A DNA stretch of 64,000 bases, from NCBI GenBank assembly GCA_008632985.1, contig QPGO01000022.1, positions 1 to 64,000 on the forward strand. Reading direction: 5' to 3'. The translations under genes and the position numbers were made by a program. Below the pieces are notes generated by a model that ran no database searches, was not told the origin of the DNA, and saw nothing but the letters and a program-made list of their open reading frames with translations. Of the stretch, positions 40,321-64,000 are shown in pieces (position 1 is the stretch's first letter; every line of letters starts with the position of its first letter). Source of the DNA: Psammoneis japonica. Its lineage: Eukaryota.

Positions 40321-40666
40321 TGTGGGAAAGTAGCCGGAATTCTAGGATTTGTCTGCACTTTCAGTGATTAAAAGCTGCAATTGCGACACAACAATCAATC
40401 AGCAACTTTGTTGCACCAAAAGTTGAGAGGTGATGATCAGTGCACTAGAAAGGTTGTGAGCAGTTTTGTGAGCAGATGCAGCTGCAAACTAAAAGAAACG
40501 CAAAGTTAAACAAGCACAAAGCCAGGAACAAACATCGCATTTGTGACTCGGCTTCCGCGGATTCGAGACTGAGCATCGCACACGGGGTTCGAATCTTGGA
40601 TCTCTGATTTGAATCGTGGAGGTCCAACGTTGTTGTAAAACATGCAAATGTGGATGTGTTGTCACA
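40321..40666 (-). repeat. 5' LTR of the Copia element
   Basis: TG...CA termini; aligns to 30044-30404. Confidence 0.9.
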
Positions 40667-41379: not shown

Positions 41380-41545
41380 CCCAGCCACCAAACAGGGTGG
41401 GCTTGTTTTGCAAAATGGCACAGGCAGACGCCAACCGTGGGTTGAAAGCATCGCTGTTTTTTTGTGACATCCAACCTTGATTGCCCCTCAACCTTCACAA
41501 ATCATTCTTGATGCATCGAGTCATGGCATCGCCGTTTGCTTCATC
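41380..41545 (-). pseudogene. Hypermutated fragment of the kelch-repeat gene
   Basis: 'NPRLASACAILQNKPTLFGGW'; aligns to about 55180-55340. Confidence 0.8.
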
Positions 41546-42762: not shown

Positions 42763-43244
42763 CACTTGCTCAGATTGGTCTGCTGTCTCTGAGGCGCAGT
42801 TGCAACAACTCTTTGTTGTTTTTTGTGTCCTGTGTTTGCCTGCACTTGCTGTGGCCACACTGCTTTGCATGCTGTTGCAAGCCAGCCCTCCCTTTTTTGT
42901 GTTGTCTCTTGAGTCTTGCAGAGCAATGGTTGTCTTTTTTCCCCCTTTGTGTTTTTTCACTTGCCTGAAAAGGGCACTTCCCCTGTGTTTTTTTTATTGT
43001 CCTGCGGAGTGTCACAAAGCTGTTCAAGGACAGTGCAAAGAAGCATCAAAAACATGCATGACTCCGATTCTTCACTGCACTGAGGGAATGAATTTCCACA
43101 TTGGTGACTGCATTCATGACATCAAAGGGATTGTGGACATCCTCCCTGCCAAGCATCAAACCGGTTCTGAACAAAAGAATGTTTTGGTGATTGAGCAAAT
43201 GTCATAAAAAAGCACAACAAATTCTGTTAGAAGAACTTCCAGGC

Positions 43245-46200
43245 TGGGTTGACGACCCAACTCCCGATGCAGTCCCCCTTTGTGGACAGTCCTCAACCCA
43301 CTGTCCAAGGCCTTTTGGATGAAATGCCAGACACGGCTAAATCTGTTACATTGGCCAGCATTCGCAGCTGGGGCTCCGTTGACTTGTCAGACATCTCACC
43401 AGATGGCTCGGCTTTGCCTCCTCCTCCACCAGCAACCCCCAGCATTCCTCCAGTGCCTCCTGTTGTTGGCGGCCATCAGTTCTCAACACATGCCCAGGTG
43501 CTCGAGTTGTCTGCAGGCACTGCTGCTCCTCCCAATGTCGGCACGTCCGATTTGACCCCTCAAGTTAGTGAGATTAATCGTCTTTGCCATGAACTTCTCC
43601 AAATGCCCCAAGAACAGGATGCCAAGTTGCAATGCATCAAGGAACAACACCGCCAGGACCAGGACGAATGAGAGAAGGCAATGGAAGAGAAGCATAAATT
43701 GTCCTTGCTCCAAATCCAACAGAGTCACCAACAGCAGCTCAACGCATTGATGGGGCAGTTCCGGGAGTTTCTGGAAGAGCAGTTCCCACCTGCCAATCAA
43801 GATTCAGTGTCCTCTCCAGCCCAAAAGAAACCAAGCATTTCCGCTCCAGCGGGGTCCTCACAGAAGAACCTCCCTCTGACACGACCATGACTGACGTTGC
43901 TCAAGATGCAATGGATTTTCCACAGGGCAGACAAAGTCGTCTTCTCCACCTGTCCCATGCAACGCAGAGGCAGCCTCTGATAAAAAGTCTTCCTTCGAGG
44001 AAGCAAGGCCTCAACATGAGTGAGGATTCTTCCTCACAGTCAACAAGAACTGCTGCCAGGCAGCACCCCTGTCCAGATGCACAACCCACCACCCCTGCAG
44101 CTGCTCAAAAATGGAATGATCTCCTTGATGGTTGCCAACATGGCTTGCCACCTCAAACAATTGACTGCTCCTTGTCAAACAGCAATGACGCCATCGGAGA
44201 CCCTCCAGGTCCAAAGAATCCCACAGCCACTCGTCTCTTTGCATTTAACGTGAATGGTTGCTCCTGCAACTTGTCAGGTGGAGACTTCAACAAACATTGT
44301 CAGGTCACCAATGAAACTCAATCAGACATTGTTGACATTTCAGAAATGTGCTTGGATGCAACACAACCCCAAGTCGCTCAACATTCAGCATCCTCCATCC
44401 CATTCACCACCCCACACAAGCCGGGTGGCATTGCCATCATCTCGTGTAATTCCATTTCATCCCAATGCCGCACCAAGCAAATGGACCCATTGGGCTGTTG
44501 GTCTATTCAGGTGTTTGACAGCAGCCAAGGAAAACAGGCAATGTTTGTCTCTTGCCACCGTGTGTGTCGGGACAATGCGTCTTCTGCCGGAAAAACAACA
44601 GCATGCACTCAACAAGTCAATTTTCTCCATCAGCAAGGACGAGCTCACCCTGAACCGAGACGAGCATTTTGCACATTCTGGAAATTTTTCTGGACAAGCC
44701 AAATGGAGAAGTTTTCCTTTTCAGGGATTTCAATGCTGTCTTTCACAATGACACAGACCCGTCAGCTTGCATGGCTCAGCGCTTCAAGTTGTTTGACATC
44801 ATGTTTTGCCACATGCAACACATGGATTTTGCCACCTGTCTTCGAGGGTCCAAATGCCCCCTTGACTGCACACTGGCCACCCCTGGAGCTCTAGATTTGG
44901 TTCTCCAATGTGGATGCAAACCTTTCGGCTGCAGAATGTTGTCGGACCACCAAGCCTGCTTTGTTGATTTTGACACTCAACTGCTGTTTGGTGATCCTTC
45001 TGTTGAGATTCCACGGTTTGCTCACCGTCACCTTCAAGCATCCTCTCCCAAACACGTGACCACGTGCCTCGAGTCCATTGGTCCCATGTTGGATGGTTGA
45101 AATGTCTTGGCACAAATGATCGATCTGTTAGAATCCTCCGAGCCTGACCACCACCCAGCGGAGCGCCTGGACAGAGACATGACACAATTCTGCATTGCCG
45201 CTGCCAAACATTGCGGTCAACATCAAGAACCAGCCTGGTTGCTGAAGTCAGCCAATCTTCACAGGAAGGTGTTTGTCCTTTCCTGTCTCCTGTCTGTGTT
45301 CAAGAACAGAATCAACTTTGTTGATGCCATCATGCATGAGCAGCACAAGTTGGATGCATCTTTCCTCCTTCCTTCCACTGGGGATGCATGTCAGCAGGCC
45401 CTTTGGAAAGCACAGGCTGAATGTGAGAAAGCAGCCAGGGACAGTTTGCATCACCAAGAGAAGGAGCGGGACGCTTGCATTGCTGAACTTGACTTGGAAG
45501 GTGCTCCCACATCCAAGAAAGAGGCGAGGATGCTCCGCAACCTGAGGTGTGCAGAGGAAACTGACCGAGTGTTCCGGAAGATTGATGCCTTTGCAGACAA
45601 AGATGGATCCAGCATGAACAATATTCAAGTTCCCGAGAACCCCCAAGAGAATCCTAAAACCTGTGACAATTGGATTGCTGTCAATGCACCATCAGATGTC
45701 ATGGCAGCTTTGACAGCACGCAATGGGAAACACTTTGGACAAGCACATGGCACCCCGTGGACAGTTCCTCCTTTGTCAATGGACTTGGGACACGAAGGAA
45801 ACACGATTGTGGCAGATTTGATTCTGGATGGCGAGTGTAAAAAGATTGGCATGTCAGAAGCCACTGCCATGCTGATTAAACACCTGCAACGCCGGACTCA
45901 AGTGTCAGTGTCCAATTTTCTGATGGCTGTCAATCTCCAAGGAAAATTCAAGGCATGGTCAGAATCCACATCCACCTCCATCAAGTCTGGTCTTCATCTC
46001 GGCCACTGGAAAGCCATGCACTCAAAACATCTGCACTCATCTGCAACGGACTCTTTCAGCAATCCTGCTGAACAACGCGAGCAATTAGACCAGATGCAAG
46101 AGACTCTCTGGTCCATCCAACTCAACTTGTTGAATTGTGCCCTCAAGTGGGGTCGTTCATGTGATCAGTGGCAAGATGTCGTGAACATCATGATTTTTAA

Positions 46201-49200
46201 GGAGCCCAGCAACAACTGCATCCATTGTTTGCATGTTGTGCACATTTACAAGGCCGACTTTCAATTGATCACGAGTGTAAAATGGAGGGTGCTAGCACAG
46301 CACATGGAGGCTGGTCAGTTCTTCAACCCCAGCATCTGTGGCACCCGTGCATTTTTGTGTCCTCAGACTCCAGTGTTCCTTGAAGTCTTGGTGCTAGAAA
46401 TCTCCCGCACTTCTCAGAAGATGCTGCCAACCAGAGATGACAATTGCACCTCTTGTTGTGATCAAAACCTTCCAGCCCTTGTGGCGATTCCATCAGTTGG
46501 CCTGGGCATGGACCCACAGGCGGTGGCTGCATGCATTGAGACCATTCACTTGGCAAGATGCTGGTTGCTGACTCTGTTGGGACTGTCCAATGCATCATGC
46601 TCTCACACCCCGGCACATCCCACACATGGCACAGGACAAGGCAGCGGCAACTCCCCATTCCACTGGGACAACTTGTGCAGTCTGCCATTTGACATCTTTG
46701 ATTCCAAGAAGGCTCATGGCGCATTTTTTGAACCCCCCAACGGCACTCATCAGATCAACATTTGTGCCCGTGGTCATGTTGATGACACGTTTAAACAAGC
46801 AAATGAATTTCGTGCTTCCCCCCAACCCTCGGTGGAAGAACTGGCTCTCAATCTACAGCATGACAACCAGCTGTGGTGTGACTTGTCACATGCCAGCGGT
46901 CACGAGCTTGAACTCCCCAAGTGCTCCTTTCATGCCATTGAATGGGAATTTTCAGAATGTGGTGAACCAAGTCTCCGCCCATGCAATCAGGACCTGAGCA
47001 TTGAAATCTTCTCTGCAGATTGCTCCACCTCCCAAGAAAGCACTCAACTGTCTTCATTTGCCACTCATAAAACCTTGGGTCATCATGTTGCCCCAGCCGG
47101 AACATTGCAGAAACAGTTCCATGAGTTGAAAAACACGAGCAACGGCAAAGCTCTCTTCATCAGAGCTGTCCCGCTTGCCCGGTCTGAATCCTGGTGGTGC
47201 TGCTGTGCGTGCTGTCTGCCATCTGTTGTGTTTGTTTTGGCAAACTCTCATTTTACCATGAAAGCTCTTTTGAAGATGCAACAGTGAGCCACAAGAATCA
47301 TTTTTGCCAAGTGTGGTTACAACAGAAACACCAAAAAGATTGCATTGTGCAGCCCTCAGTCCTTGGGTGGTGGAGGATTTTGATCCTCAGACGCAGAGCA
47401 AGGTGCTGCCCAAATCCATCAGTTGCTCAAGCATTCTCGGGGAGCACAACCGCTTCTTGCAGATGATCAGCCCTGCAAGGTTGTTCATGTGGCTTCAGCG
47501 TGGCACCAATTGAGTCCAGGCATGGGCGTGAGCTTTCTGCAGGATGTCAGCACCCCCCATCCACACAGTGAGTCACCATGGTTTGCTTCAGTGCATTCCT
47601 TTTTACACCAGATTGGTGGATGCATCCGAGTGGCAGATGACGGCGCACTCCCGTTACAATGTGATGACGATCAGCATCTCATGGACGTCACTCTGGCATC
47701 AGCGGAATTTTCGTCCCTGGAGATCAAATGATGGATCAACTGTTGTCGCCTCTGTCTCAAGGTTCTCATGGTTTGTTTCTGACATCACGTTGGCAAATGG
47801 TCTCGAATTGGATGAATCCAAAATGTGCGGAGACCCAACACATCTCAGCAGCGTGAGCACCCTCAACAACATCGAGCAAACCAAGCCATGTCCCAAAGCC
47901 TGGCAACCATGGATCCAATTGTGTGGCATGCTTTGTCACCCTGACTCAACTCTTCTTCATCATCCATCAAGGGACTGGCTGGTGCCTCAAATAGAAATGC
48001 GCATGCAAGCAGCTGCTCAATTTTCTCCAAGCAAATCACATCTGTGTGTCCATTCCTCAAATGGCTTTGACATCTTTTTGGTGAGCCAAGCTAAAGCAAC
48101 CTCCCTTTCTGAAATCGAAACTGTTCCGCAAGCATTGGATGACTCGCATCCAGTGGAACTGAGCATGGCCACCGATGGTTGTTGGCAGTTCACCCCTCAC
48201 CGGTCAAAGCTTAAACTGGAACAACCCATCCCCATCCCAGATTTCTTCCGCAATTGCTTGCAATCCCTTCCAAAATGGGAATCTTCCTTGTTCATTCAGA
48301 TGGACTTTCACGTGCCAATCCATGAGCTTGTTGACATTGTGGTTCTTTGTCGGGTCACTTCCGGCAGCAACAGTTCTGTGAAACAGAAACAAGCCACGTT
48401 TGGGTGGACTGTCATGGACGATGGCCGCCCTTTGGTTGATTGCACGGGGCCTGTTTTTGGACGATCACCTTCTTTGTAAAGGGCAGAGGTGCATGGAGTG
48501 CTTTCCCTGCTGAGATTTATTTTTTGACTGTTAGAGTTTTGCAAAGCATGCCAACATCAGGGTGTTGAAAACTGGTGTGACAACAAGGCTTTGGTTTTGG
48601 TGCTCCACAAGTTGTTCGGCTCATGCCCAGCTGTTGATCCTCAGTCTGCACCCTCTGAAACGGATTGCAGCCTGCAGTTCCATGGGGCAAACGTGTTGTC
48701 TTTGGACTGGGATGTTGTCAATGAGATTTTTCAGTCCCACACAGACATTGACAAGTTTCTGGACTTTTTCTCTGTTGCCAGATCACCGTCCACTGAATGG
48801 GTCAAGGGACACCAAGACAGAGAGTTCCCCGCAGCATCTCCACCACTCAATGCCAGAGTCAATGCACAAGCTGACAGGATTGCCGGACAATTTCAGGGAC
48901 AATGTTTTTTTGACACCTCTGCAGTCACAGCATTCCCACATTGCCAAAAGCATCTGGACCTTGCAGATGGCACAGTCACCACAGGATGCAAATCAGCAAT
49001 CAGACATGCCACCACCACCACCCCAGCCTTGTTGGCCTGCATCCAGGAGTGGAGTGACTGGGGTGAGACTGCTGCTGACAAATTGATTGGACAGTCCATG
49101 CTACACTCATTCAACGATTCTCAAAGAAACATGTTTCCACAGTCAAACTCTTGCATGAACTGCTGCCCACAAAAAAAATTGCAAATGGATGCAACCTGGC

Positions 49201-50070
49201 ACGTCCTCATCACTGCCTTGCCTGTGAACTCCCCATGGAGGATCAAGACCACATTCACAGGTGTCCAGACAACAAGCCTTGGAGAAGGAAGTTCGACATT
49301 GTGACAAGACAGACACAATGCCCCCTTTGCGTGAAGTTCAACATTGTGACAAGACAGACACAATGCCCCCTTTGCATGACTTTCTCCTCCAGATGTTAGA
49401 GGCCTGGTTCCAGGGTGCTGTGGCACATGACATGGACACACCTCCACTCCTTCGTACACTGTGGCACAAGCAGACTGACACACAGGATGAACGGGAGATT
49501 CTCTAAGTTGTGGAATGTCCACCAAGAGATGCACCTTTGAGAAACCAGAAAGTTGGAGCAACATCGCTGGGAAAATAGCCCCCCTCTGGTGTGGTCAGTT
49601 CAAATTGGCACTTGCATTTGGAAAGCATGGTGGGAGCTTTGGGAACAGCACAATGCGGCCATGCATGGACATGATGCAGATTCCTGGAAGTCTTCACTGC
49701 AGCGTCAGGCGGAAGCAGAACTTATGGCCATTTACAATGAATGCCAGGAGTGTCTTGCACGTGACCACGATGCACTGTTGGAGTCAGTGGAAGAACACAT
49801 GAGTTGCTCAACATCATGAATCCTAAATTGGGTTGCAATGATTAAACCACGCCTGAAAGACAGCTTGAAAAAGGCAAAGCACTCCCCGCTTTGCGGCACT
49901 TGCTTGATTGCAAGTTATTTTGGTGGGGCGTCACCTTCTGGTGACGCCCATCCCGGCCAGTCACGGACTGCTTCTGCCGCACCTTACGGTGTGCTGGAAG
50001 TGTGGGTCAGCCAGCGCCAGCCTGGCTGGCAAAGGACTGACAGCACTTAAAAATTGTTTTTTTTTTTTCC
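43245..50070 (+). mobile_element. Long Ambal-like non-LTR retrotransposon (ORF1 remnant; APE endonuclease, RT, RNase H), dead and hypermutated
   Basis: APE start 'RLFAFNVNG' and 'SDHQA'; RT 'GLHLGHWKA', 'HGTGQGSGNSP', 'GHVDD'; RNase H 'ATFGW', 'RAEVHG', 'WVKGHQD', 'NAQADRIA'. 5' boundary uncertain; clade call is from memory of diatom LINEs. Confidence 0.88.
49291..49379. repeat. 45-bp tandem duplication inside the LINE
   Basis: GTTC(G/A)ACATTGTGACAAGACAGACACAATGCCCCCTTTGC(G/A)TGA occurs twice; the copies differ at CG versus CA sites. Confidence 0.9.
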
Positions 50071-50735
50071 CTGTGTTTTTTTTATTTGGCTGTGCATCTG
50101 CACTCAAATTTAAATGGGCCCTCTGTCTAAAAACAAGAGCTGTTTTACGCATGATTTCTGTGTGGCTTGTGTGTGAGGAAAATGTGCTTTCGCCAACCTC
50201 TCAAGTTGTCAACCGTGATGACCATGATGCAGCACATTTGGGTCAATTTCCAAGTCTCACGGAGTGAAAATCACTGATGAGTCACATCATGACGTGACCA
50301 CAACAATGAACACATGTCATCAGATGCAGCACATCCCATGCTGAAGGCATGTTTTGCTGCCAATTCATTGATCAGCGGTCTCAACAATCAACCACGAACT
50401 TGCCGCTTGTGTCAAAAGGAAGGAGGCTGTTCTTTTTTTGTTGTTGGTTGCAGTTTTGCAGTGACTGTTTGTGCTTCATGAAAGATGGAATGAGCATCAA
50501 TGCTGCTGCACTTCATTGTCATGGTGAGGTCAAATTGTTTGGCAGCTCTTGATGAGGTGTGAAGCTCAGTCTTGCACAGAGAATCCATGGACTCCTTGTC
50601 ATGCCACTTTTGCGGTTCTGCGCTGATTTGCAAAAAACATGGGGGATTGGATCCACAGATCACAAGTGGAAGGGACAAATGCCTCACACACAATTGGTTG
50701 GACAAATGCTGCAAACAAAACATTGTGAGTCGACA

Positions 50736-51072
50736 GTGGTGAGGATGGGTTTTTGAGGGGGGAAACAGAAAAAGGTGAAAATTTTGCTGAATGATTGGCG
50801 TTTGTCATGAAGACAGAAATGCAGTGCTTTTGGCAGCAATGCCATGCACAATGTGAAAACAAACATCTTTCAGTTGGAACAAAGTGCAGTTGTTCAGAGA
50901 TGAGATTGTGAGTTGATGGTGAGCATGGGTTTTGAGGGGGAAACAGAAAAAGCAAGGTGAAAATTTTGCTGAATGGTTGACGCTCATCACGATGAAGACA
51001 GAAATGCAGCGCTTTTGGCAGAAATGCACGCACAATGTGAAAACAAACATGTTTCAGTTGGAACAAAATGCA
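50736..51072. repeat. Diverged tandem duplication, about 180-bp period
   Basis: 50736-50888 aligns to 50917-51072. Confidence 0.85.
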
Positions 51073-51354
51073 CTTCGTTCAGAGACAGCAGAGCAATGCT
51101 GCCATGTTGCTTGGCATGTTGGCACTCAAGTCAACAAGTGCACATTGAACAAAATGCACCCAGGAGCAACAAGCACAAAATGTGCCAATCAGGTTGGTGA
51201 AAACAAATGAAAATGTTGCACTCCCAACAACAAGTGAATGTCGACTTCAATCTGGAGGGGGGTCAACCAATGTTTGCACACGTGTGCATGCCATGAGATG
51301 GTGGGGTTTGACGACCTGTGACTCACGGCCTTTTCTGTGGGTCTCTGATGTTCT

Positions 51355-52912
51355 TTTTCTTCCACACACACCCACCAAAGATGCACAAGTCACCTTGATT
51401 TGTCACAAAAGAGATGTGCCCAGATTAGGGCAGATTGATTTTTGCACTCCTCTTGGAAAGATCTGTTCACTCGGCCTTGCAGCTTGTTGCCAAACTCTTT
51501 GCTTGTGGCGTGTCATTGCAAATGACAATGACAAAGTGCGCAGCTCAACTGTGACACACAGCGGTTGCTCATTGTCCTGTTTTGTGCTGTTGCTGTTGAC
51601 ATTGCTTGTGTCAGCAGCAGCAACAACAAAACAACAAAAGAGAAAAATTCTCCGCCAAACCTCACTTTTTTTCCAAGTGTGAGAGAAAAAAATTTGCTCA
51701 AAATGGAAAAAAATGTGGCCTGCTGCAGGAAAAAATTGTTTTTCTCCACCGAAACTCATTTTTTTCCAAATGCGAGAAAAAAATGCTCAATGTGGGTTTA
51801 CACACATGTTCAGTCATTGACAGTTGCCAGCGAACTGCATGGAACAAAAAAGATTTTGACCGGACAGAATCGGACAAGAATCGGGAAAAAATCTGCCGAC
51901 ATCTTTTTTCGGAAAAAGGCACACACATTTTCAGTCATTTTAAAGAAATTCACCAATCTCAAGATGCACCTTGTCCTTTTTGTTGCTGCCAGCCCTGAGC
52001 GAATGAGCGGCTTGTTGGACACGATCATGCAAGAGCTGACATTTCTTGTCAGATGCCTTTTCAATGAGTCCCTCATTGGATGCCAAGATGAGGGTTTTTG
52101 TTGTCTCTTCCTCCAAATTGATGATTCATGATGGACACTTGGAGGTCGACGTCAAAAGTCAAAAAGAGGCATGCCACATTTTTGAGAAGGCACTGCCCCT
52201 CAGAAGCAAGATGTTTGATTCCTGCACAAACCACATCGACAACATCATCTGAGGCACTCATTTCTGCCACAATGCAGTTGACATTGCAGCTCCAATCACA
52301 AGACACTGGTGGGCTTGTTTTGTAAAATGGAGCAGGCAGATGCCAACCGTGGGTTGGGAGCATCGCTTTTTTTTGTGGAATCCAACCTTGGTTGCTGCTC
52401 CACTTCCACAAATCACTCTTGATGTGTCCAGTTGTGGCTTTGCCATTTCCTTCTTGCTCTTCCACGCGTCCACCAAAGATGCACAAGTCACCTTGATTGT
52501 TGCACAAGAAACATGTCCGGATCGGGGTGGAGTGGTTGTTGCACTCTTCTTGGAAAGATCCATCAGCTCGGCCTTGCAGATCATTGCCAAACTCTCAACT
52601 TGCAGCGTCGTCACAAAGAACAAGAACGCAAGTGTGCAGCTCAACTGCGACATGCAGCGGCAAGAACTCATCATCCTGTTTTGTGTTGTTGTTGTTGACA
52701 CTGCTTGTGACAGCAGCAACAACAACAACAACAGCACAACAAAAGAAAAAAATTCTCAAAAAAAGAGAAAAATTCTCCGCCGAACCTCACTTTTTTCCAA
52801 ATGTGAGAAAAATTTGCTCAAAATGAAAAAAATCGGCCTGCCGCACGAAAAAATCATTTTTCTTCGCCGAAACTCTTTTTTTTTCCAAATGTGAGAAAAA
52901 ATTTGGGTTTGC
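51355..52912. repeat. Two hypermutated partial copies of the mosaic unit at 54230-56060 (kelch 5' part plus A-tract module; the second also carries an AAA-ATPase fragment)
   Basis: 51355-51955 aligns to about 55345-56060; 51955-52305 aligns to 54230-54614; 52308-52912 aligns to 55194-55695. Confidence 0.9.
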
Positions 52913-52924
52913 ACATTTCTTTCA

Positions 52925-54422
52925 TCACAGCTTTTGAGAAAACCATGTTCCTTCATGGCTTTTCCAGACAACTTCAAAGGAGTTCGAGAGCGACCCATGA
53001 GATTCAAGACAAGCTGGTGATGAGGAAGATTCGCTCCCACAGCAGACAGTCATTTGATTGCGCTCCAGCATCTGGGCACAACGCGACTGAAAATCTTTTT
53101 CAAGCTGCTGAAATTACAACGAGAAAAGAGGACAATGACACAGCAATTGACAAAGAACAGTGTCGGCTGTGCACAAGTTGACAGATGAAAAAGGCCAGGC
53201 TTGCTTCCAGGGGCAGACCGGAGTGCAAACAACAGTTGTGGGTGCAGCCACTGGCACAGAGAATTGCATTCTCCATGTCAACAGTTTCCATCCCAACGAT
53301 GCATCCTTTCAGCAAGGGTTTGTGAGTGTCTTGAAGAGGGTTCTGCCACAGAAATGTGAGTGAATGTGCCATGTGGCAACTCCCGCCTCGCATTCCCGTG
53401 CGCTGCTTTTTCAAAAATGGACAATGCAAGCTTTCCAAACCTTGATGCCTCGCTCAATTTCCCAAGTGAGCACTGCACGACTCCATGCTGAGTGAAGGCA
53501 AATGAAGACAGATTTTGTCTCCCTGTTGTGCAGCGTGTGCTTCATTGAATGAAGCAACAGAACAACAAACAAAGTGCTTTTCTTGACCAGAACGCGCACC
53601 GAGCAATCAAAATGATCGCCTTCATTGCGCCAATCTTGTGATCGTCCGTCATTTGTGACAGAGAGAGAAGGTCATCATCGTCTGACTTGCGCACCATTTT
53701 CTTCACTTTTATGTTGTCATGCAAGACATGTGGCATGGATGGTCTCTCGGGTGTGATTTCTCCCAGCTGGGAGAGCAGCTCAAGACAAATTTTAACAGCT
53801 TCGTCACACTTTCTCTGGTTGGCAGAGAGGGACTCTATGATGGCAAAATGCGCAGGGACCTCATCGTCAAGAGATCGAGCATTTGACAGCACCTTGTCTG
53901 ACATGAGTCTGCTCAGTTCAATGTTCCCATTTCTTAGCTCCATTTCAGCCGAAGCACTGTGTGGCTTCAAGTTCAAGTTGTGCTCTTCGTTCCAACTGTT
54001 CTTCTGGTCTTTCAGCAGTGCAATGCCACATTGGAGGTGTTCTGCGCTGGCACAAAAGCGAATGTGCCCATTGCAATCTTGGCGGCTTCTAGGTTCAGCT
54101 TGGTTAATTATGTTTTGGCGTTGTCAGATGAGATGCACCTCGAACCAAGGTTTAATCGATGCGCAGCAATGACCAGCAACACCTCCTTTGATCCTTTGTA
54201 AGAGGCACTGCTGTGCCATATTGTTTTGTCAATCTCAAGATGTAACTTGTCCTTTTCGTCCCCGCCAGCCCCGAGCGAATAAGCGGCTTGTTGGATACGA
54301 TCATGCGAGAACTGACATCTCTTATTAGACACCTTTTCAATGAGTCCCTCATTACCGGTAGATGCCAAGACGAGGGTTTTTATTATCTCTTCCTCCGAAT
54401 TGTGTCCATCAGATTCCGCCAT
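52925..54422 (-). pseudogene. C-terminal part of an AAA-ATPase/TPR-like protein (related to bacterial kinase-ATPase sensor proteins)
   Basis: 'QFSHDRIQQAAYSL', 'LHLEI', 'AHRLNLG' and a downstream helical region; stops and frameshifts present. Confidence 0.75.
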
Positions 54423-54634
54423 GTCTTAATGATTCATGACGGGCACTTGGAGGTCAACGTCAAAAGTCAAAAAGAGGCATGCCGCATTTTTGAGAAGGCA
54501 CTGCCCCTCAGAAGCAAGACGTTTGATTCTTGCACAAACCACGTCGACGACGTCGTCTGAGGCATTCGTTTCTGCCACAATGCGATCAATATTGCAGCTC
54601 CAATCATAAGATATGAGAGAAAATGATATTAAAT

Positions 54635-55611
54635 CATCGCACTACAGCATTAATGGACAATAACCAAACGTCGCTGCATCCTTCCAATCCACCATTCTTC
54701 TTTGGCACGGCACCACCAAACAGCACGGCACCACCATCTTGTACGGTACATAGACAAGGCGAAGCACGAGGACACGGAGCATCATTGGTCATTTCGACAC
54801 GTGTCTATTCCCATATGGGCGTATCTAACACAAACACCTCGTTGGACATGGTCCCATCTTGTGCGGCTCCGCACGTTACCAGTAACTTGTTTTTCGATAT
54901 CAACGTGGCGCCATGCAAACCACGTGGTGAGGGGGCGTCACCCGTTGTATAGACACGCCACTGCCCTTTTCATTTACAGTAGTCACGACAAGAACGTGAT
55001 TGGTACAGCGATGAGTGTGCAACAAAACGCAGTCGTCATGCAAAGCAACCGCGACATCACGACTCGTAGGTCCGTCGGGTAGTTTGATGTTGCTTTCCAG
55101 CGTATTCCATTGGCTTCCATCCTCTAATTGCACGATATCGTCTAGAATTATTCCATCAGTCCCTGGTGTTTGTGGATCCCAACCACCAAACAGGGTGGGC
55201 TTGTTTCGTAAAATTGAGCAGGCAGACGCCAACCGTGGGTTGGGAGCATCACTGTTTTTTTTTGTGGAATCCAACCTTGATTGCTACTCCACTTCCACAA
55301 ATCATTCTTGACGTATGAGTTATAGCATCGCCGTTTGCTTCTTTTTCTTCCACGTATCCGCCAAAGACGTACAAGTCGCCTTGATTTGTCGTAAAAGAAA
55401 CGTGTCCGGATCGGGATGGAGTGATTTTTGCACTCCTCTTGGAAAGATCTATCCACTCGGCCTTGTAGCTCGTTGCTAAACTCTCAACTTCTAGCATCGT
55501 TATAAAGAACAAGAATACAAGTGTGTAGCTTAACTGTGATATACAGTGGCGACTCATTATCCTGTTTTGTGTTGTTCTTGTTGACATTACTTGTGACAGC
55601 AGCAGCAACAA
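54635..55611 (-). pseudogene. Kelch-repeat protein gene copy, frameshifted, TpA-retaining
   Basis: 'PSRSGHVS...LYVFGGY', 'NDLWKW', 'TLFGGWD', 'PRGLHGA' and 'VLFGGA...DVWLL'. Confidence 0.8.
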
Positions 55612-55815
55612 AACAACGCAACAAAAGAGAAGAATTCTCCGCCGACCTCACTTTTTTTTCAAGTGTGAGAAAAAAATTTGCTCAATGTGGGTTTATACAT
55701 ATGTCCAGTCATTATAGGTCTGAATGAAACATGTGGAAAAAAAAAATTTTTGACCGGGCAGAATCGGGCGAAAATGGGGAAAAAATCTGCCAAAATCTTT
55801 TTTTCGAAAAAAAAG

Positions 55816-55933
55816 ATATATATACATATATACTTATATATATATATATATTCAACTATCTATAGACAGTCTATAGATAGTCTATAGACAGTCTATAGAC
55901 AGTCTATAGACAGTCTATAGACAGTCTATAGAC
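55816..55933. repeat. (TA)n-rich tract followed by about 7 copies of an 11-bp unit with palindromic core GTCTATAGAC
   Basis: Read directly; exact palindromes start at 55880, 55891, 55902, 55913 and 55924. Confidence 0.95.
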
Positions 55934-56549
55934 ATTCATCTATTATTTATTAATGACTAAATATATGTATAACTTTTTTTTCGATTCTCAAAAATCTGTC
56001 GACATCTTTTGTTCGGAAAAGAATTATATACATATTCGGTCATTTTAAAAAATTATCAACTGTTGACCAACTATAGTGTTGATCACAACCATTTTTTTTT
56101 CGTGAAACGAAAAAAAGAAAAGAAAACACCAACAAACCAACAAAAAGACGACGACCAACGAAGCAACGGAGATGTATCCAGATTATTCTACAGTATGTAA
56201 AAAGTCGTCGTCAAGTTGCAACATCCAAGTTTCCAAACGAGGTTGTTGTCTGTCCACACAATCGCTCCTTCCACCCAGTCACAATCATGGACAGGCACTG
56301 GCCAAGAATTGGTTGGACGAAAGGTTGCTTGCGACTTGCGACTTTGGCAAGTCCCTCTCGTTGAATGGAGACGAGGCGATAATTCTTGCGATTGGAGACA
56401 CGACAAATGTGACCGTGCAAACCGTGATGATGGTGTTTTTCTGTTTGAGTGCGACTCCGCTTCGGACCGTTGGGTTCTTCTTGCTGGCGATGTTCCTGGA
56501 TTTTCGTGCGGCTCTCGGACACAGGAGACGTTGTTGCTTTCGGAGCTTA

Positions 56550-57150
56550 ACGACGCTCGAGTGCGAGAATGCCAAGACTGCTACTCCACCGTGGCGGAAG
56601 CCAAGGGCATGGCCTACCGAAACATACATGCTGATTCGGGCCATTTACGGATGCGTAGTGCGACCCCTAATGTTGCCGAGTCGGTTGCTTTTACCCTCGT
56701 GGACTTTGTGGCCACGGATGGGGGCGTGCAGGTTGCTATTTTTGTCAGAGCCATGGTCGAAATAGTACCCCGCACTGCGAGGATCCATCTTGCCCAAGTT
56801 ATTGGGTTTCATCGAGGACATTTCTTCTAGCGTATGCCTCTGGGTATTGTGTGAATACATGGATACGGAGGAAACTTTGAAACTTTTTCGGAACAGCCAG
56901 GTCCGACCCCATTCTTGATCTCCAAAGAAGAGAATCACAAAGAGAATCACGAAGAAGAAGAGGCTCCCAAAATGAATACCAAGAACGTTGTGTTGGCCGA
57001 TGGTACTTCTGCAATCCAGACTGTTTACTCCGAAGCTGCTCGTCCTGACGAGTCGGATAATACTCCTCATCTGCGCAAAATGGTGATTGGTGGTGACGTC
57101 TTCTTGCGAACCATTCTTGCTTCCCGCCTCACCAAGTTGTGTTTGATGGC
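56550..57150 (+). pseudogene. Internal fragment of coatomer beta subunit (beta-COP)
   Basis: 'VAESVAFTLVDF', 'CLWVLCEY', 'VLADGTSAIQT' (compare VLADGTYATQS) and 'LRKMVIGGDVFLRTILASRLTKL'. Confidence 0.8.
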
Positions 57151-59039
57151 TATCTGGTACGGATCTTCCTCAAATACCTTGTTCATTAGTTGAGACTATC
57201 GACTCCTCGTCGCGGCAATTTCGGCACTCCACGAAAAGTTGGATGATCCATTGTTTGTTAAACGGATCATAGTATTAGGTGGTTCTTTAGAGGTACGATT
57301 GTATTGCTCTTAGTATTTTACTGTATTTTTCTTTATGATAGCGGTCGAGGATTGTAGAGTACCGGCATGGCATGTCCTTTGGGAAGAAGAAAGATAATCT
57401 TAATGCGTTACAGCATTGGGTTGAGCGCGTACTCGCACTAACTTACTTTCAAATCGAGCGAGCTCTTTTGAAACTCAACCACACCTCTCCCACCCACAAA
57501 GCAACGCGCAAGACGACGAACGGAACGATCGCCAAGCAAATGATTTACGAAATTACATGATTCGTCTACTGCACGATGACGACTTTAATAAGTTTGTTGA
57601 TGATATGGAGCATAGCATAACCTCGGCGGACGATGGTGGAGCGGAAATATTGAGAGCACTTCGCCGGGCTGAAACGTAGAGCATTCATTGATCCGAAACC
57701 GTACTTTTCTGACAAACCTCGACTCGAGGATAAATCATCGAATCAGTCCTTAGGCTAAAGATCCATATCCATGAGTGTGTGAAAAGTATCCTCTTTCTTG
57801 TCTTGAAGAAGGTGGACAACGTCTTCGAGAAAAATCGTTTCTTGACTTGATGATTGTTTCCCTTTTCTAGTCGCTGACAAGATACGATCCAAGCAACTCT
57901 GTACTTCATGAGATCGAACTGACGATTGAGCAGCCATTGGCAGTGAAATCCAGTCATGAATCGTGACTCCTCTTCGTTCCATGCACGGTCTTTGAGTGAC
58001 ACTTCCTGGTTTGCAAGGGAACTCTATTTCCATTCACTCTGATGGACCGCCAGCACTCACCACAATAATCGGTTTGTATCGAGCCTCTCCAACACTTCTG
58101 AAGGTGCCCCACGTGTTCACCAAACGTGGGGCACTTCTGTTCACAAAGTGAAACCCAGGAGTAACAGACACTCTTGCATGTCCTTGCCCAGATTGGCGTT
58201 GTTGATTTTGAAGTGGCCTTTCAATGAAATTGGGAGACAGGCAAAGCAGCAGGTTCTTGGGGTTGGGATCTTCTGGCTCTCAATCATTGATTGATTCACT
58301 GAGGGCCCAAAGAACAAAGAATGAGCACGACATCCCCGAAAAGCACCTTGTGACGCTTGTGCTTTCATGCCACTTCTCACGTTCATAAGAGCATCTTCGA
58401 AGACTTTTCATGATGAGAGTGACACGGCTTGCAAAAGGCCGCATCAACCATCAGTTTCAACTGCCCAAGCCAAGATGCAGTGAGCAAGCAAAGAGCCATG
58501 GACAAATCATTCACCCCAAAGCAGCACTCATCCCATGCAGCCATTGTCACTGTGTCCCATGCCAAAAGCTTCACGCAGAGGTTTGGCAGCAGCCAACACA
58601 CCATGGGAGGTGACTGCAGAAGGGCAAAGCCACATCCCGTTCACTCCTGTCCCCCTCAAGTTTAATCACATTGAAGGAAAATTTTTGTGGTGAGAAACTT
58701 GCCACCCAGTTCAGTGTCTTGTGCAGAACAAATGTTTTCCAGCAATGCTGCCACTTCTCATGGCCAGATGCATCATTTGGTCGGAGAAAACTCAACGGCA
58801 TTTCATGAACATCTCTGTGTTGTGAAAGCACTGGAACCAAGGTTGCTGCAGCTGGAAACCCAGAGAAGAGCATCGGTGGCTGAAGTTGTCAGATTGTCAC
58901 TCATGACAATGAGAATTGATGGATGCCACATCTCCAGATTGTCCGCAACATGTTGAACTCCGCATTTTTGTGGAAGTCAACAGCAACAATGCTTCAGACC
59001 TTTGCATTGAGACTGAGACTTTTCTCCCAACTTGCTCAT

Positions 59040-59800
59040 TGGAAACCAATTCACCTGACGCTGTTGGCAGTGAGGATCACTTCTTAGAGTCTTTGACAGC
59101 TGTTGGCTGCTGCTTTGATGCACTGACCAGGAAGCAGGTTGCTGTCCACAAACGATGCATTGTGTGGAAGCTTGCACTCTGGAGAAAAGGGGCTCAGCTC
59201 TTTCTTGGCTTGGCAATGATTGACTTGTCATCACATGCTACTCCAGCTCTGTGATCAATGCAAGAAGGAATTGAAGGGTGGAGCACGGTCTGCCTTGAGG
59301 AAGGTGTTGAATGGCGATGTCGCGTTGAACACTCCAATGGTCGTTCTCTGCATCAGTCAAGATTTCTCTGCCAGTCCTTCTCTGGAATCAAAGGCAGAGC
59401 TTGCCAAGGGTTGGTGCTGCACTCCATTCAAGCTCTGTTGGATCTGCGCCTCACTCAGTGGGGTTTGGGATTTGCTGCTGGCACTTGTCTACAATGCGCT
59501 TTCATTGTGCTGTGACCCCAATGACCTGGTTGCCTTCAAGAGAGACCATCTTCACGTCTGTCTCATGCACCTTGGTCTCATGTTTCAACAGAGTGCAGTG
59601 CTTGTTCACTTTGTGCTTGCTCATCAATTTGTGGGTTGTGGATGCCAAGTCAGGAGCCTTCAAGCTGCCAATTCCCACACCTTGTGTAAAGTGCATGCCT
59701 TGTCTCATTCTGGGACCAGCAAGAATGAATCACAAAAGAAACAAAAGCTGGGTTCCTTGCAAGAGGATGTTGCAACTGCTGGTGGAGGCAATTGAAAGCA
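59040..59800 (+). pseudogene. BRCA2: Hypermutated fragment of the BRCA2 helical and OB1 domains
   Basis: 'VHKRCIVWKLA' (compare NHYRWIVWKLA), 'LLQLCDQCKKELKGGARSALRKVLNGD...PMVVLCIS' and 'ELAKGWC' (compare ELTDGWY). Confidence 0.78.
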
Positions 59801-60759
59801 ATTTCCACATTCACAATCATTTGTGGACTGACAAGCAATGCTTGTCTCTCGAATGTTTCTTGCCTGCTTCTTAACTTGCACCATGCCACGAAAACAAATC
59901 AAAGAAAGTTCCGCTGCGAAATTTTTGACTGGCAGACTTTTACAATTGGCAAAATCACAGCTGTGCATCTGATGGTCATAAGAAAATTTTTTGTGCCAGC
60001 CATGTGTCTCTGTTGGGAGCGCCTCTGTTGTCATCCAATTTGTGCTTCACAAAAAACAACTCCAATTTTGGCACTGCTTTGACAGTGGTTTTGGAGAACT
60101 CTTTTGCGCTTCCCAGTCTTGAATGTTCAGCTGAGCAGTCCCAGGAAGGAGTGTCCTGGACTCAGCAATTTCCACTGCGGACACATTCAGCCATCATTTC
60201 TCATGATCTGGGGTGGTGCATTGCTTTGTCCCATGAGAGCATGTTGGGATCCTTGTTCTTGCAAGTGGCAGCCTTGCAGACCTGGGGAGCAGTCACAGAA
60301 ATGGAGCACCCGTGATTGAGCCTGTGCTGTGCATGGAGGCAGCTGTCAAAGTGTGCCAAGCAGCCACATCCCTTGGATCCATCATGCCTGTGCCACTGCA
60401 GAGGAGCATGAGATCAAGTCGAACACATGGGAGGAGGAGTGGCAGGCATTTCCTTGCTCCCTCTCTTGGCTGGGTTCATGAGAGAGAGGCTCTGGGGAGT
60501 GGAGGGCTCCAACAGAGGGCTGGTCTTCACACTGGGTGGTGTCTGTGGGGCTGTCCCCCTCTGAGGCAAGTCTGGCATGAGAGGACCTGGAGAAGGCTCC
60601 ACCTGTGGCAGAGATGAAACTGAAGGGGCTGGCAACACCACAGAACTGTGTGTTGGCGTGCTGCAGGTGGGGTGGGAGGCACTTGGGCCACCAGAGAAAC
60701 TGCACTGGTGGAAGAAGGCGTGGTGAGCAGCCATGACTCTGTGGTGGCACAAACCTTGC

Positions 60760-63700
60760 ACATTTGCCAAGACAACACTCATCATGTTCTTGGGAAGGAT
60801 CAGCTTCAGCACCAAGAATCTCAAGAGCCTCTGCCTTCATGCAGAGCAAGCAGCAGGGAGCGCTGATGTGCTTTGCACGTGGAGACAGTTTTGCCATTTT
60901 TGCAAAGTTGAGGCATGCTTGAGGTCAGACTGTCCTTGCACACAATCAAAGTTGGGATCTTGCCTTCTTTTGCATCTGAAAATGCTCTAGATTTGGCAGC
61001 AGCATCAGGTGTCTTGCAGTTCTTGCACCCAAATGTGTGAGTCTGAAATCCTTTCAAAATTTCATGAACTGGAGTTAAGTTGATGTGCATCGCAGCCAAT
61101 GGAGCCAGCCTCTGCACAGCAGAAAGCATGACCTGCATCTGCAGCATGAAGACCCACAGAACAGGACACTCATGACCCAAGATGACATGCACCCAGTGCA
61201 AGACTAGATGCCAACCAGGTCCACAGGGTCATTGTGTGTGAAAAATCATGGGGCCAGCAGATCAATTGTTTGATTCAGAGGATTGATCCCTGCTGCCTGC
61301 TGATTTTTTGTTTTTGCATTCAAGCAGTCTCTTGTTGTCACCACCGTGCAACAATGATTTCTCTGACTGTGTTTCCAAGGGGCCAACAGGAAAAAATTGG
61401 TGCTGCAATTTTTTGCACAGGTGCATTGCTGAGGCCAAGCAAGGGTGGTTCACATGTGAGCTGCTTTGCATGTTGGAGAGACTGGCAGAGGTGATTTTCA
61501 ATGCATTTTGTGGTGTGTGTGTTGCCGTGTGCTTTGTTGCAGCCAAGGGAGTGCCCCACTTAAAAGCATTTTTGTGGTCATCACTCGAAGCAAGTAATTT
61601 CACAGCAAAAAAGTCAATCTTCTGGCACACACAGACAATCTGCTGACAAGCCCAAGTTTCCCATGGCCATGCAGACTGGCAAAATCAGCACCAACAAAGC
61701 AGCCAGTCCATTTGTTGTCACCAGGGCATGAACAGAGTCCCTTGTCCCCAGCACCTTGCAAATGCCATGAAACATGATTTTTTTTTTACCTCAACCATGT
61801 GGGAGTGCTTGGGAGTGTCAGAGAAATGGGCTGCTTGATGAGATGCATCAACACACCAACAAAGGAATGGTGATCCCAGCTCTTGTTGAATTTGGCTCCT
61901 TTTCATCTTTGTGACATGAAGCAGTGGCACATGGAGTGGAGGCTGACCTGCAATTTTCTGCAACAGCTGTCTTGAGAACCTTCTTGTCAAGCCAGACTGG
62001 GTGAGCAGGACTCCTTGGGGGCATTGCAGTCTTGCAAATCTTGATGCCAAGAAAATCAACAAGTTCTTGCTTGTTTTGCAACTCAAACACATGATGTTGT
62101 TTCTCATCTTGCAGCCACCCCCAGGGCTTTGATCCTTTGTTCTTTCCAGCATGAACAGCATTGTCAACACAGACCACTCGAATCATCTCATCCTTGAAGA
62201 ACAGGCATGGTTGACTTGTGACTGAGTCCACAACATTCGAGATTTGTTTTGACGACACTCTGAAGCTTGTCCTCAAGCACCAGAGATGTCCAGACTGGAG
62301 AGCAGCCAGCGTTCTTGTGGAACATCTCATCATCAAAAAAGCACTCCTGATCAGTGGGTGGCTGTGTGCACACCTCAACAAAATCATTGTCATCACTCAG
62401 TTCCATCAAATTGGCAAGTTCAAAAGGCAGAGTGGGTGCATCATTCTTGTCTCTGTCTGAGTGCACCACCAACTCACATTTGAGCTGTGTCATGCCTTGG
62501 GAGAGCAGCACTGGATGAGCACACTGTGGGCAACAGGTCAACTCAGTCATCAAGAGCAGAGACAACATTTTGAGTCTGCCAAGAGCATGGGGAGTTAAAG
62601 GGCTGAAAAGGGTGGGGAAGAGTGTGGCCAGCCACCATGCAATGGAGCAATTTTGCACACAATGACATCCCCATGGCAGGGATGGCAACACAGGGTGGGC
62701 ACACGTTTGAACAGGCAGACATGGTGGGGTGAGAATCCTCAGCAGAGATGCCACAGGCAAAGATGGTGTGAGCTTGGGGCCCCACCAGGTGGCGGTCTGG
62801 TGCCAGATTTGGCTTGGACATGGCATCAATGCAGTGCTGCTCAGTGGCAGGGAGAGCAGAATTGTCAAAGGGGGCACCAACTGGCTTGTGCTGTGGGGGG
62901 TCTTTGTTGGGGAACATGACACCAGCATTGTCCCAAGAGAAGTTGCCACAGCTGCCAAAGCAATGCTGCAGTCACCAGCATCTTCAAGCTCAACAGTCTT
63001 GACTGCAATCTTGGTGAGCTCCCTCTGAGATGCAGGAGCTGGCTTGCAGAAGCCTTTTGCAGTTGGTGCAGCCAGCAGAGGATGGATCCTTGACTTGCAG
63101 GACAATGAAGCCCAGTTCACACTGGTTCCTTGCCGCCAACAGGAGCATCCCTGGGCAAGTCAGTTGGATCGGAGGCAGTCTGGGTGGCCAGCCCAAGTGG
63201 GTGCCTGAGCACAGGTCATTGATGGTTGATGGAGGTGAGGTCACCCACAAGCTGCTCTTGCTTGGACAGCTTGTGAGCATGGTCCAGTTTCCTGTGATTT
63301 GTGCATGTCATGTCCCTGTGACACCAGTGTGTTTGAAAGAGTGCACTTTTCACAGAAACAGGTCAAACCAGACTTGCTCACAATGGGCTTAGAGGGATCC
63401 ACCAGATGGGCACAACAACGGGGCTTCTTGGTGTGAGCAACTCCTTGGGTTTGGCTCTTGTTTCTCAGCAGGGGAAGTTTCAATGGCAGCAGCACATGTC
63501 ATTGATGCTGGCACTTTTTTTCTTTTGCTGTTGTTGTTCACATGCTTGGAACACTTGCATGGGGCTGTGCCAGCCCACCCAGTGGCATGTTGTGGCTCCA
63601 CAGGAGTGGTGGGCACTGCTGCAATCAGATTTGGAGGCATTGTGGCTCTGAGGGGGCTCAGTCAAGAAGCTGAGCCAATCCTCATCAGCATTCAGAAGAT

Positions 63701-64000
63701 GCTGGTGACTGTTTGAGAGGCAATGTCACTGCAGGCGGTGGGTGTGCTTCACAAAACATGCGGTTGAATGAAGAAGGAGTGACAGAACCTCAAGTCACTG
63801 AGGGGCTCAGGAAAGAGCACGTAGAAACAATGTGTTGCATGTCTGACACACTTTGTGATTGGGCAAAAGCTGCTCCCGGATGGGACGAAGTGCCGTTTGC
63901 TGCAGACAAAAGGCGCAACAATTACTTTGCTTCCAAACTTTGCGACAAATTTGGTCTCAACCGTGTCAACAAGAACGGCAAGCAGGCACAACTGTTTGAG
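60760..64000 (-). mobile_element. Heavily degenerate Ty1/Copia relic (RNase H, RT and less certain upstream regions)
   Basis: 'KLSPRAKHISAP', 'CPVLWVFMLQMQVMLS', 'PCLFFKDEMIRVVCVDN' (YVDD position) and 'DFLGIKI'. Extent beyond about 62.3 kb is tentative. Confidence 0.7.

Follow-up and report, generated by a model that had tools for sequence, protein, structure and literature searches.

What could remove one dinucleotide almost completely from some copies of a duplicated sequence and leave it in place in another copy nearby? The question is raised by a 64,000-nucleotide stretch of Psammoneis japonica DNA (positions 1 to 64,000 of contig QPGO01000022.1, assembly GCA_008632985.1; hereafter, the window), in which paralogous copies of a kelch-repeat pseudogene differ sharply in their content of TA. 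A preliminary description, made from the sequence alone, had proposed from three of these copies that TA is the ancestral state and that the two TA-free copies were each hit independently on either strand. Here, we find that the three paralogues can be read as a local sample of a regional process, i.e., a TpA-directed transition hypermutation that acted after insertion on putatively silent DNA and that is overlaid on CpG decay, a reading to which we give a probability of roughly 80%. The copies and the two pseudogenes to which they belong are as follows.

55178-55800 (approximate), minus strand: copy c55, which retains TA; 5′ part of the kelch pseudogene and upstream DNA, with a family-like translation (RSGHVSF...LYVFGGY)
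54634-55497, minus strand: kelch-repeat pseudogene of the unmutated island that holds c55; ATG at 55497, truncated at 54634
52292-52925 (plus 51948-52303), minus strand: copy c52, hypermutated, without the ~570 bp equivalent to 54612-55177
51345-51905, minus strand: copy c51, hypermutated, reading LCIFGGC
41380-41560, minus strand: copy c41, a hypermutated middle part of the kelch gene (repeat family D5) and a partial fourth copy
54224-54611, minus strand: piece of a pseudogene with open reading frames (ORFs) that we presume from its motifs to be STAND/AAA16-like, the piece being without a family match; mutated copy at 51948-52303; continues to ~53545

The repeat families (D1-D3) and the alignments identify the three segments compared in the preliminary description as true paralogues, and the TA counts given there were reproduced. 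The segment of c55 (55446-55561, 116 nt) contains 12 TA, 4 CG, 7 CA, and 7 TG, that of c52 (52557-52675, 119 nt) contains 0, 6, 18, and 7, respectively, and that of c51 (51460-51576, 117 nt) contains 0, 4, 13, and 16. As had been stated, the 12 TA sites of c55 read CA at 10 positions, TG at 1, and CG at 1 in c52. The same sites read CA at 8 and TG at 4 in c51, such that at 5 sites one mutated copy has CA where the other has TG (discordant sites), at 6 both have CA, and at 1 the pair shows CG versus CA. All three motif pairs cited as examples are present (GATCTAT to GATCCAT or GATCTGT, GATATAC to GACATGC or GACACAC, and CATTATC to CATCATC or CATTGTC), and translation confirmed the contrast between LYVFGGY in c55 and LCIFGGR in c52, with LCIFGGC in c51. 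When the whole c55 and c52 units were aligned, 31 of 32 TA had changed, compared to 154 of 778 for all dinucleotides other than TA and CG (Fisher P = 4e-20), while CG had changed at 27 of 40 positions (Fisher P = 3e-10). Between c55 and c51, the corresponding figures were 19 of 20 for TA, 13 of 17 for CG, and 116 of 418 for the other dinucleotides. Nearly all changed TA became CA or TG in both mutated copies. The STAND-like piece behaves in the same manner, since its 52 kb copy (359 nt aligned, 87.5% identity) has lost 11 of 11 TA (6 to CA and 5 to TG) and 15 of 20 CG. Loss of CG, which the preliminary description did not stress, is thus also present in the mutated copies.

A zero TA count is not peculiar to the paralogue segments and is the rule throughout a domain of ~30 kb (domain A). 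To describe the composition of the window, the ratio of observed to expected dinucleotides (O/E) was computed per region, and the window divides into a gene-dense part, two domains purged of TA and CG, and an unmutated island between them.

1-23500: gene-dense region; O/E of 0.54 for TA, 1.02 for CG, 1.12 for CA, and 1.14 for TG; GC content, 0.488
23600-54090: TA-/CG-purged domain A, with Copia, long interspersed nuclear element (LINE)-like, and DDE-transposon remnants and host-gene fragments; over 23701-54050, O/E of 0.09 for TA (170 TA), 0.41 for CG, 1.67 for CA, and 1.69 for TG; GC content, 0.491
54091-57950: unmutated island with c55 and ordinary TA and CG O/E; over 54051-58000, O/E of 0.63 for TA, 1.08 for CG, 1.15 for CA, and 1.15 for TG; GC content, 0.445
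57951-64000: TA-/CG-purged domain B, which continues past the window end; over 58001-64000, O/E of 0.06 for TA (23 TA), 0.18 for CG, 1.90 for CA, and 1.65 for TG; GC content, 0.496

The domain edges could be located to within ~100 to 400 bp, and the neighboring DNA is ordinary (TA O/E of 0.54 and 0.63). The left edge of domain A is sharp and lies near 23575, and its right edge forms a shoulder of intermediate TA density between 53700 and 54090. With the genic density as the expectation, simple arithmetic on the counts gives a deficit of ~910 TA and ~1085 CG in domain A and a surplus of ~2093 CA plus TG, and the GC content is the same as in the genes (0.491 versus 0.488). A joint deficit of TA and CG that approximates the surplus of CA and TG at unchanged GC content is the pattern predicted if TA and CG were converted to CA or TG. 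Host-gene fragments (kelch and STAND-like) and unannotated DNA are purged as strongly as the mobile elements.

Three lines of evidence support the view that TA is ancestral, namely, the discordant sites, the outgroups, and the ordinary TA content of the island that holds c55. A three-way alignment of c55, c52, and c51 contains 366 ungapped columns and 19 TA sites of c55. The states of c52 and c51 at these sites are CA/CA at 9, CA/TG at 4, TG/CA at 1, CG/CA at 2, and TG/TG, TG/TA, and TT/CA at 1 each. The sites at which one copy reads CA and the other reads TG (the CA/TG and TG/CA classes) point to a TA ancestor, since only TA needs a single change per lineage. The preliminary description had named CA, TG, or CG in the parent gene as the result that would speak for the opposite direction; homologues from other organisms were found to carry tyrosine, or TA, instead. 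The kelch pseudogene matches a diatom kelch family of ~380 residues, and the consensus of 27 homologues from other organisms contains FGGY and R-Y-x-x-NDLW. Tyrosine is found at both positions in c55, while c52 has arginine (CGC) and histidine, c51 has cysteine at the first, and c41 has cysteine at the second (TRCIKNDL). Finally, the TA O/E of the island (0.63) is close to that of the genes (0.54), which indicates that c55 did not gain TA.

The same polarity could be examined in the mobile elements of domain A, whose main remnants are listed here.

35157-37406, minus strand: pol remnant of a Copia-type retroelement (Pfam RVT_2, 1.6e-26), with an SH3_retrovirus ORF
30030-30405, no strand assigned: direct repeat resembling a long terminal repeat (LTR), paired with 40308-40667
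40308-40667, no strand assigned: second LTR-like repeat, paired with 30030-30405
45101-47284, plus strand: ORF remnant of a LINE-like (non-LTR) retrotransposon; 55 homologues, some with PF03372 and PF00078
33492-33896, minus strand: DDE_3 transposase fragment (Pfam PF13358, 2.2e-10)

The Copia reverse-transcriptase ORF contains no tyrosine in 315 residues. When it was aligned with 40 homologues, 10 columns with a tyrosine consensus read histidine (5), cysteine (4), and phenylalanine (1) but never tyrosine, and the tyrosine of the YxDD box reads cysteine. Other residues were kept in this alignment (leucine in 15 of 16 columns, tryptophan in 5 of 5, and aspartate in 10 of 11), while the 10 arginine columns read R at 5, C at 2, Q at 2, and H at 1. 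The LINE-like ORF has a single tyrosine in 728 residues, compared to 3.7% in its homologues. Against 22 of these, its 16 tyrosine columns read C (7), H (2), F (3), W (1), R (1), D (1), and Y (1), with tryptophan kept at 8 of 8. Combined, 18 of the 26 consensus tyrosine columns of the two elements read cysteine or histidine. In codon alignments with two environmental relatives, the 33 TA of the first (L001) are matched in the window by 14 CA and 10 TG, and for the 37 TA of the second (L033) the window has 13 CA and 11 TG, with none kept as TA in either case; CG behaves as TA does in both alignments. These comparisons show that the direction of change was from TA, and from CG, to CA or TG, with TA and CG as the ancestral states.

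The claim that each copy was hit independently on either strand is supported by a match to the expectation under independence. Given the CA:TG ratio of each copy over the 19 sites, 8.9 sites should read CA in both copies, 0.8 should read TG in both, and 5.5 should be discordant, and the observed numbers are 9, 1, and 5, respectively. At ordinary sites, 10 differences from c55 are common to c52 and c51, while 18 and 26 are private; the two copies may therefore have had a short common history alongside mostly private hits. Both strands were also mutated within a single element, as seen from the 5 histidines and 4 cysteines that replace tyrosine in the Copia reverse transcriptase. As for coordination along one strand, the polarity of the changes in c52 forms 20 runs, which is below the chance expectation (P = 0.024), and adjacent TA or CG events share their polarity in a 14:5 ratio (P = 0.023). 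This pattern is not repeated in c51 (15 runs, P = 0.94; 5:7), and the CA-versus-TG skew in 500-nt windows across the domain is barely over-dispersed (variance of 1.74 versus 1.33 in genes). Strand-coordinated patches are thus an unreplicated hint.

The place and time of the changes can be read from several features of the window. DNA upstream of the kelch unit and intergenic DNA are mutated like the coding part, and the right edge of domain A falls inside a continuous STAND-like pseudogene that runs from 54422 down to ~53545. The two LTR-like repeats, which would have been identical at insertion if they are true LTRs, align over 360 nt with 91.4% identity, and their 31 differences comprise 27 transitions and 4 transversions. 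The differing dinucleotides are CA/CG (6), CG/TG (5), CA/TG (4), TA/TG (2), and CA/TA (1), for a total of 18, and a pair that differs mainly at CG, CA, TG, and TA is evidence of change after insertion. These observations show that the changes came after duplication or insertion.

The spared copy is itself broken. Three frame changes are needed to read the c55 kelch pseudogene, in which an in-frame TAG stands at a tryptophan of the family (WeW), TCG replaces the FGG of the family, and the C-terminal ~70 residues are missing. In this assembly, c55 is therefore a truncated pseudogene and not the functional parent. A poly-A/T run at 55255-55263 is 2 bases shorter in read contigs (X1, depth 168/341; X2, 45/45), and with the shorter run, one frame change fewer would be needed, such that the brokenness may in part be assembly error or allelic. 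Since the spared copy is a broken pseudogene, it is protected by its position and not by selection. Exposure is set by chromosomal position, as shown by a continuous pseudogene that spans a domain edge, and depends neither on repetition alone nor on selection.

We then considered which TA sites survive. Survival was defined as the surviving TA density in the domains divided by the genic density, for each tetranucleotide with the two strands collapsed. It is lowest for ATAC (0.005), ATAT (0.008), and GTAC (0.019), followed by ATAG (0.055), ATAA and CTAC (0.14 each), CTAG (0.21), GTAA (0.26), CTAA (0.33), and TTAA (0.49). This order shows a per-strand target of 5′-T-A-Y (where Y is a pyrimidine and R a purine), in which RTAY, with two target strands, vanishes and YTAR, with none, lasts the longest. 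In the island, an (AT)18 run at 55816-55851 was kept, although ATAT is among the most erased contexts in the domains. By comparison, CpG survival over 10 tetranucleotide contexts ranges from 0.29 to 0.68 in domain A and from 0.08 to 0.36 in domain B. Because TA loss depends on the flanks and CpG loss is nearly flank-independent, the two look like separate processes. The CpG part resembles the methylation-driven decay of vertebrates, plants, and many protists, in which CG becomes TG or CA; here it is limited to repeat domains and nearly flank-independent. Such decay accounts for the CG half only, and TA is not depleted in 78 related loci.

These 78 loci are the Copia loci related to that of the window that were kept out of 323 confirmed in metagenomes. 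Their TA O/E ranges from 0.42 to 0.90, and none of the 78 is TA-purged, while many are CG-poor, with a CG O/E down to 0.09. TA erasure is thus not a trait of the Copia family, and CpG decay is common where TA erasure is rare. In a public representative library, 4 of 150 relatives of the reverse transcriptase (P0121, P0140, P0206, and P0260) are poor in tyrosine (0 to 0.9%) and contain 8 to 10% cysteine plus histidine. P0121 is 61% identical to the ORF of the window and resolves 5 of 10 tyrosine columns differently, which argues for a separate, independently mutated copy. By their composition, the four proteins appear to be a protein-level footprint of the same TA erasure. No tyrosine-poor member was found among 55 LINE relatives.

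The purged sequence was also recovered from reads. Contigs built from a public run (31-letter words, word depth of ~60) reproduce it with 0 to 18 differences per piece. No difference was found over 51469-51875, and 18 were found in the 5238 nt of 42890-48126, of which 11 oppose CpG to CpA or TpG and 3 oppose TpA to CpA or TpG. As this stretch has ~121 CG and ~33 TA, sites of the CpG and TpA types differ ~100 times as often per site as elsewhere. These differences could be alleles, drift in culture, ongoing hypermutation, or consensus errors at modified bases.

The closest known case is that of Bigelowiella natans, in which a preprint reports hypermutation of TpA to TpG or CpA in integrated giant-virus and virophage DNA (Mettrop et al. 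2026, bioRxiv 10.64898/2026.01.13.699255). In the preprint, 231 of 302 new substitutions in 15 mutation-accumulation lines fell within two integrated viral regions, and 210 of 211 changes in hypermutable regions were transitions of the A>G or T>C type, TpA being the site in every case (bioRxiv 10.64898/2026.01.13.699255). The same text describes genome-wide clusters of windows low in TpA and high in CpA plus TpG, enriched in reverse-transcriptase and DDE domains, and proposes an ADAT2-like deaminase without proof (bioRxiv 10.64898/2026.01.13.699255). The two cases share the conversion of TpA to TpG or CpA on either strand and a confinement to certain silent or foreign regions whose flanks are normal. 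They differ in the host, a chlorarachniophyte there and a diatom-like stramenopile here, and in the targets, which are viral in B. natans and comprise Copia, LINE-like, and DDE elements and tandem duplicates of host pseudogenes in the window. Depletion also differs in depth, with a TA O/E of 0.45 reported for the viral region and near-saturated values of 0.06 to 0.09 here. CpG is co-depleted in the window and a flank rule is apparent (TAY favored and TAA resistant), while the available preprint text mentions neither CpG nor flanking context nor diatoms. Moreover, the evidence in B. natans is a measured mutation rate, whereas ours is a sequence footprint with a few polymorphisms. In the literature outside subscription journals, this preprint was the sole precedent that we found, and no report described hypermutation of TpA to CpA or TpG in diatoms.

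Could c55 instead have gained its TA by C-to-T changes at CpA or TpG, as in the repeat-induced point mutation (RIP) of ascomycete fungi, the TA-free copies being the unmutated ones? Taken by themselves, the 9 of 19 sites at which both other copies read CA could be explained by a single C>T in c55. Each of the 5 discordant sites would cost 3 changes, versus 2 under a TA ancestor, and changes from CA to CG and from TG to CG would also be required in c55. The outgroups carry tyrosine or TA, and the TA O/E of the c55 island is ordinary next to the 0.09 of the domain that holds the other copies, such that we consider this reversal very improbable. The likeness to RIP lies elsewhere, in dense dinucleotide transitions made in place that irreversibly inactivate duplicated or mobile DNA and in mutated islands beside normal genes. 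In contrast to RIP, which changes C to T mainly at CpA and creates TpA, the process seen here destroys TpA and enriches CA and TG at unchanged GC content; RIP also mutates every copy, whereas c55 was spared although it shares 350 to 900 bp with c52 and c51. Nor does it seem credible that no mutation process took place and that the domains are compositionally distinct by foreign origin or by selection against TA and CG. Many genomes and viruses are poor in both dinucleotides, and the domains do contain mobile DNA; however, differences between paralogues within one genome are almost confined to TA and CG, conserved catalytic or structural tyrosines and arginines were destroyed, all 78 related elements elsewhere have a TA O/E of at least 0.42, and selection fails to explain a contrast in which the spared copy is a pseudogene. 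Differences of the CpG type and in homopolymer length are typical of long-read consensus errors, and modified bases misread as CA or TG could in principle mimic a purge. The window reads CA or TG where a contig reads CG at 15 of the 40 differences listed (40 of 412), and the read contigs dispute the homopolymer length at 55255. The read contigs nonetheless reproduce the purged sequence, the loss that we infer is far larger (~30 TA per kb), and P0121, P0140, P0206, and P0260, which come from other records, share the tyrosine purge; an assembly or base-calling artefact can hardly be entertained.

Another possibility is that RNA was hyper-edited from A to I by an ADAR-like enzyme and that the edited copies were then reverse transcribed and inserted. 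ADAR prefers a U on the 5′ side of its target and a G on the 3′ side. The TA context fits the former preference, which is also raised in the Discussion of the B. natans preprint (bioRxiv 10.64898/2026.01.13.699255). Two of the affected elements are retroelements, and the 7 Tyr-to-Cys versus 2 Tyr-to-His changes in the LINE-like ORF amount to a sense-strand bias. Yet the domain runs unbroken for 30 kb, and its edges bear no relation to where the elements end. The changes also reach upstream and intergenic DNA, the remnant of the DDE transposon, and tandem duplicates of genomic DNA, and the LTR-like pair diverged after insertion at the same dinucleotides. Since the Copia reverse transcriptase was hit equally on both strands (H5:C4) and a 3′ pyrimidine is preferred here rather than a 3′ G, RNA editing appears improbable. 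ADAR and APOBEC3 do produce clusters of deaminase-type transitions that inactivate mobile elements, but they act on RNA or reverse-transcription intermediates and on one strand of retro-copies, whereas here both strands, non-retro DNA, and LTR-like repeats after their insertion were affected. The main mechanistic rival to adenine deamination keeps the same regional hypermutation and places the lesion on thymine, for instance through a TET/JBP-like dioxygenase that would oxidize T in RTA to 5-hydroxymethyl- or 5-formyl-uracil mispairing with G. 5-Formyluracil causes T-to-C transitions, and thymine-oxidizing enzymes occur in several protist groups, both of which favor this route. Since TA is palindromic, T>C at R-T-A leaves the same trace as A>G at T-A-Y on the opposite strand, and the sequence gives the thymine lesion no preference over adenine deamination. 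The sole experimental precedent proposes a deaminase, also without proof, and we consider the thymine lesion unlikely, although less so than the other alternatives.

Several points weigh against the hypermutation reading as we state it. The deaminase step is something that we infer, and an identical pattern would follow from chemistry aimed at T (RTA) on the opposite strand. The survival figures assume that genic TA contexts are ancestral, and mobile elements may have started otherwise. The supporting run probably comes from the source sample of the assembly, so that it is not independent, the three runs being from one sample. In addition, the preprint on B. natans reports almost no GC-to-AT excess in the hypermutable regions, in contrast to the prominent CpG loss seen here, and CpG loss beside TpA loss means either two overlapping processes or a system unlike that of B. 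natans.

Under regional hypermutation, the three paralogues would be a local read-out of changes made in place in two transposon-rich, silenced domains. The A:T pairs of the palindromic TpA would have been converted to G:C, such that TpG marks a hit on one strand and CpA a hit on the other, and the conversion would have run until almost no TA remained. CpG in the same domains would have decayed to TpG or CpA through ordinary deamination of 5-methylcytosine. At TpA, an enzyme could have deaminated adenine in DNA to inosine, and this enzyme could be a TadA/ADAT2-like deaminase that silent, CpG-methylated chromatin attracts. We put adenine deamination in DNA as the lesion, possibly by such an enzyme, at about even odds. 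TadA and ADAT2 act on A34 of tRNA, which is preceded by U33, and bacterial TadA reads a U-A-C-G loop; the putative 5′-T-A-Y target resembles this U33-A34-C35 context, although no such gene lies within the window. To our knowledge, no alga has been proven to have an adenosine deaminase that acts on chromosomal DNA. The role of the process may be the permanent inactivation of mobile and duplicated DNA, as tyrosine codons become cysteine or histidine codons and the catalytic tyrosine of the reverse transcriptase is lost. A bolder form, in which one strand-wise enzyme deaminates A at TpA and C at CpG, is hinted at by the polarity pattern of c52, which was not replicated in c51.

Other features of the window are given here for completeness. 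Upstream of each kelch copy lies an inverted-repeat motif (CTCAC, T-run, CCAAR, TGTGAG) followed by an A-run and TTTGCTCAA (51655-51780, 52780-52900, and 55645-55675). It occurs once in c55 and twice each in c52 and c51, which points to a duplication of ~90 nt common to c52 and c51 and not shared by c55. A read contig (depth of ~43) links 52910 to 56110, skipping 3199 nt that include the whole c55 unit and carrying 32 other letters between them; at two positions these letters read TA, as c55 does, while c51 reads CA or TG. The contig stems from a structural variant or else from a paralogous locus without the island copy. Paralogous read contigs also lie over 53205-55580. Within the island, an 11-mer, TCTATAGACAG, is repeated 6.9 times at 55859-55934, intact and ~2 kb from either purged domain. 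In domain A, a tandem repeat with a period of 184 (1.9 copies, 86% matches) occupies 50737-51085, and the read word depth reaches ~570 to 700 in two bins over 50006-51339, compared to ~60 elsewhere; the repeat is a high-copy family. The named kelch homologues are from Seminavis robusta, an MMETSP entry beginning with "Cosc", and one haptophyte, and the named homologues of the LINE-like ORF are all from Fragilaria crotonensis. The SH3_retrovirus match (5e-6, 26.7 bits), a domain that accompanies integrases, is just below the curated cut-off of 27, and an RNase II-like fragment also lies within domain A. A six-frame translation of 23.5 to 64 kb gives overlapping ORFs of 100 to 700 codons on both strands. 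Pfam matched a family in only 5 of the 117 stop-to-stop ORFs of this part, and no viral hallmark gene was found among them; most of the long ORFs without a family exist because TAA and TAG stops were lost. Ordinary eukaryotic genes occupy the left part of the window and encode KH, DnaJ, and peptidase M3 proteins and a tubulin-cofactor-E-like protein with leucine-rich repeats and a ubiquitin-like domain. For the latter, all organism-named matches among the 120 listed are from diatoms (~47 to 53% identity), including Thalassiosira, Discostella, Skeletonema, Stephanocyclus, Cylindrotheca, and Bacillariaceae. Going by the best hits with an organism name, at ~50 to 55% identity, the host is diatom-like and distinct from Bigelowiella. 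No RNA family was found by Rfam in the whole window.

For sequence databases, TA-purged domains mean that tyrosine-less "proteins" rich in cysteine and histidine stand in public collections, that gene callers would predict many false proteins of this kind, and that the dating of transposon insertions is distorted. For the mechanism, the flank rule, the mutation of both strands of resident DNA, the edges that ignore element borders, the spared pseudogene, and the co-located CpG decay are constraints that any explanation has to meet. The same signature, in saturated form, in a diatom-like genome from a different supergroup than B. natans suggests an old or recurrent system. Since diatoms are major marine primary producers with genetic tools, the question is experimentally tractable. 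We tentatively propose, as a possibility that we rate below even odds, that diatoms have a chromatin-guided DNA adenine-deaminase defense that erases 5′-TAY in silenced mobile or duplicated DNA, beside CpG methylation or recruited by it, and that such a defense is present, counting Bigelowiella, in two or more distant eukaryotic supergroups. If true, this defense would parallel fungal RIP with its chemistry reversed, and transposons would be disarmed for good.

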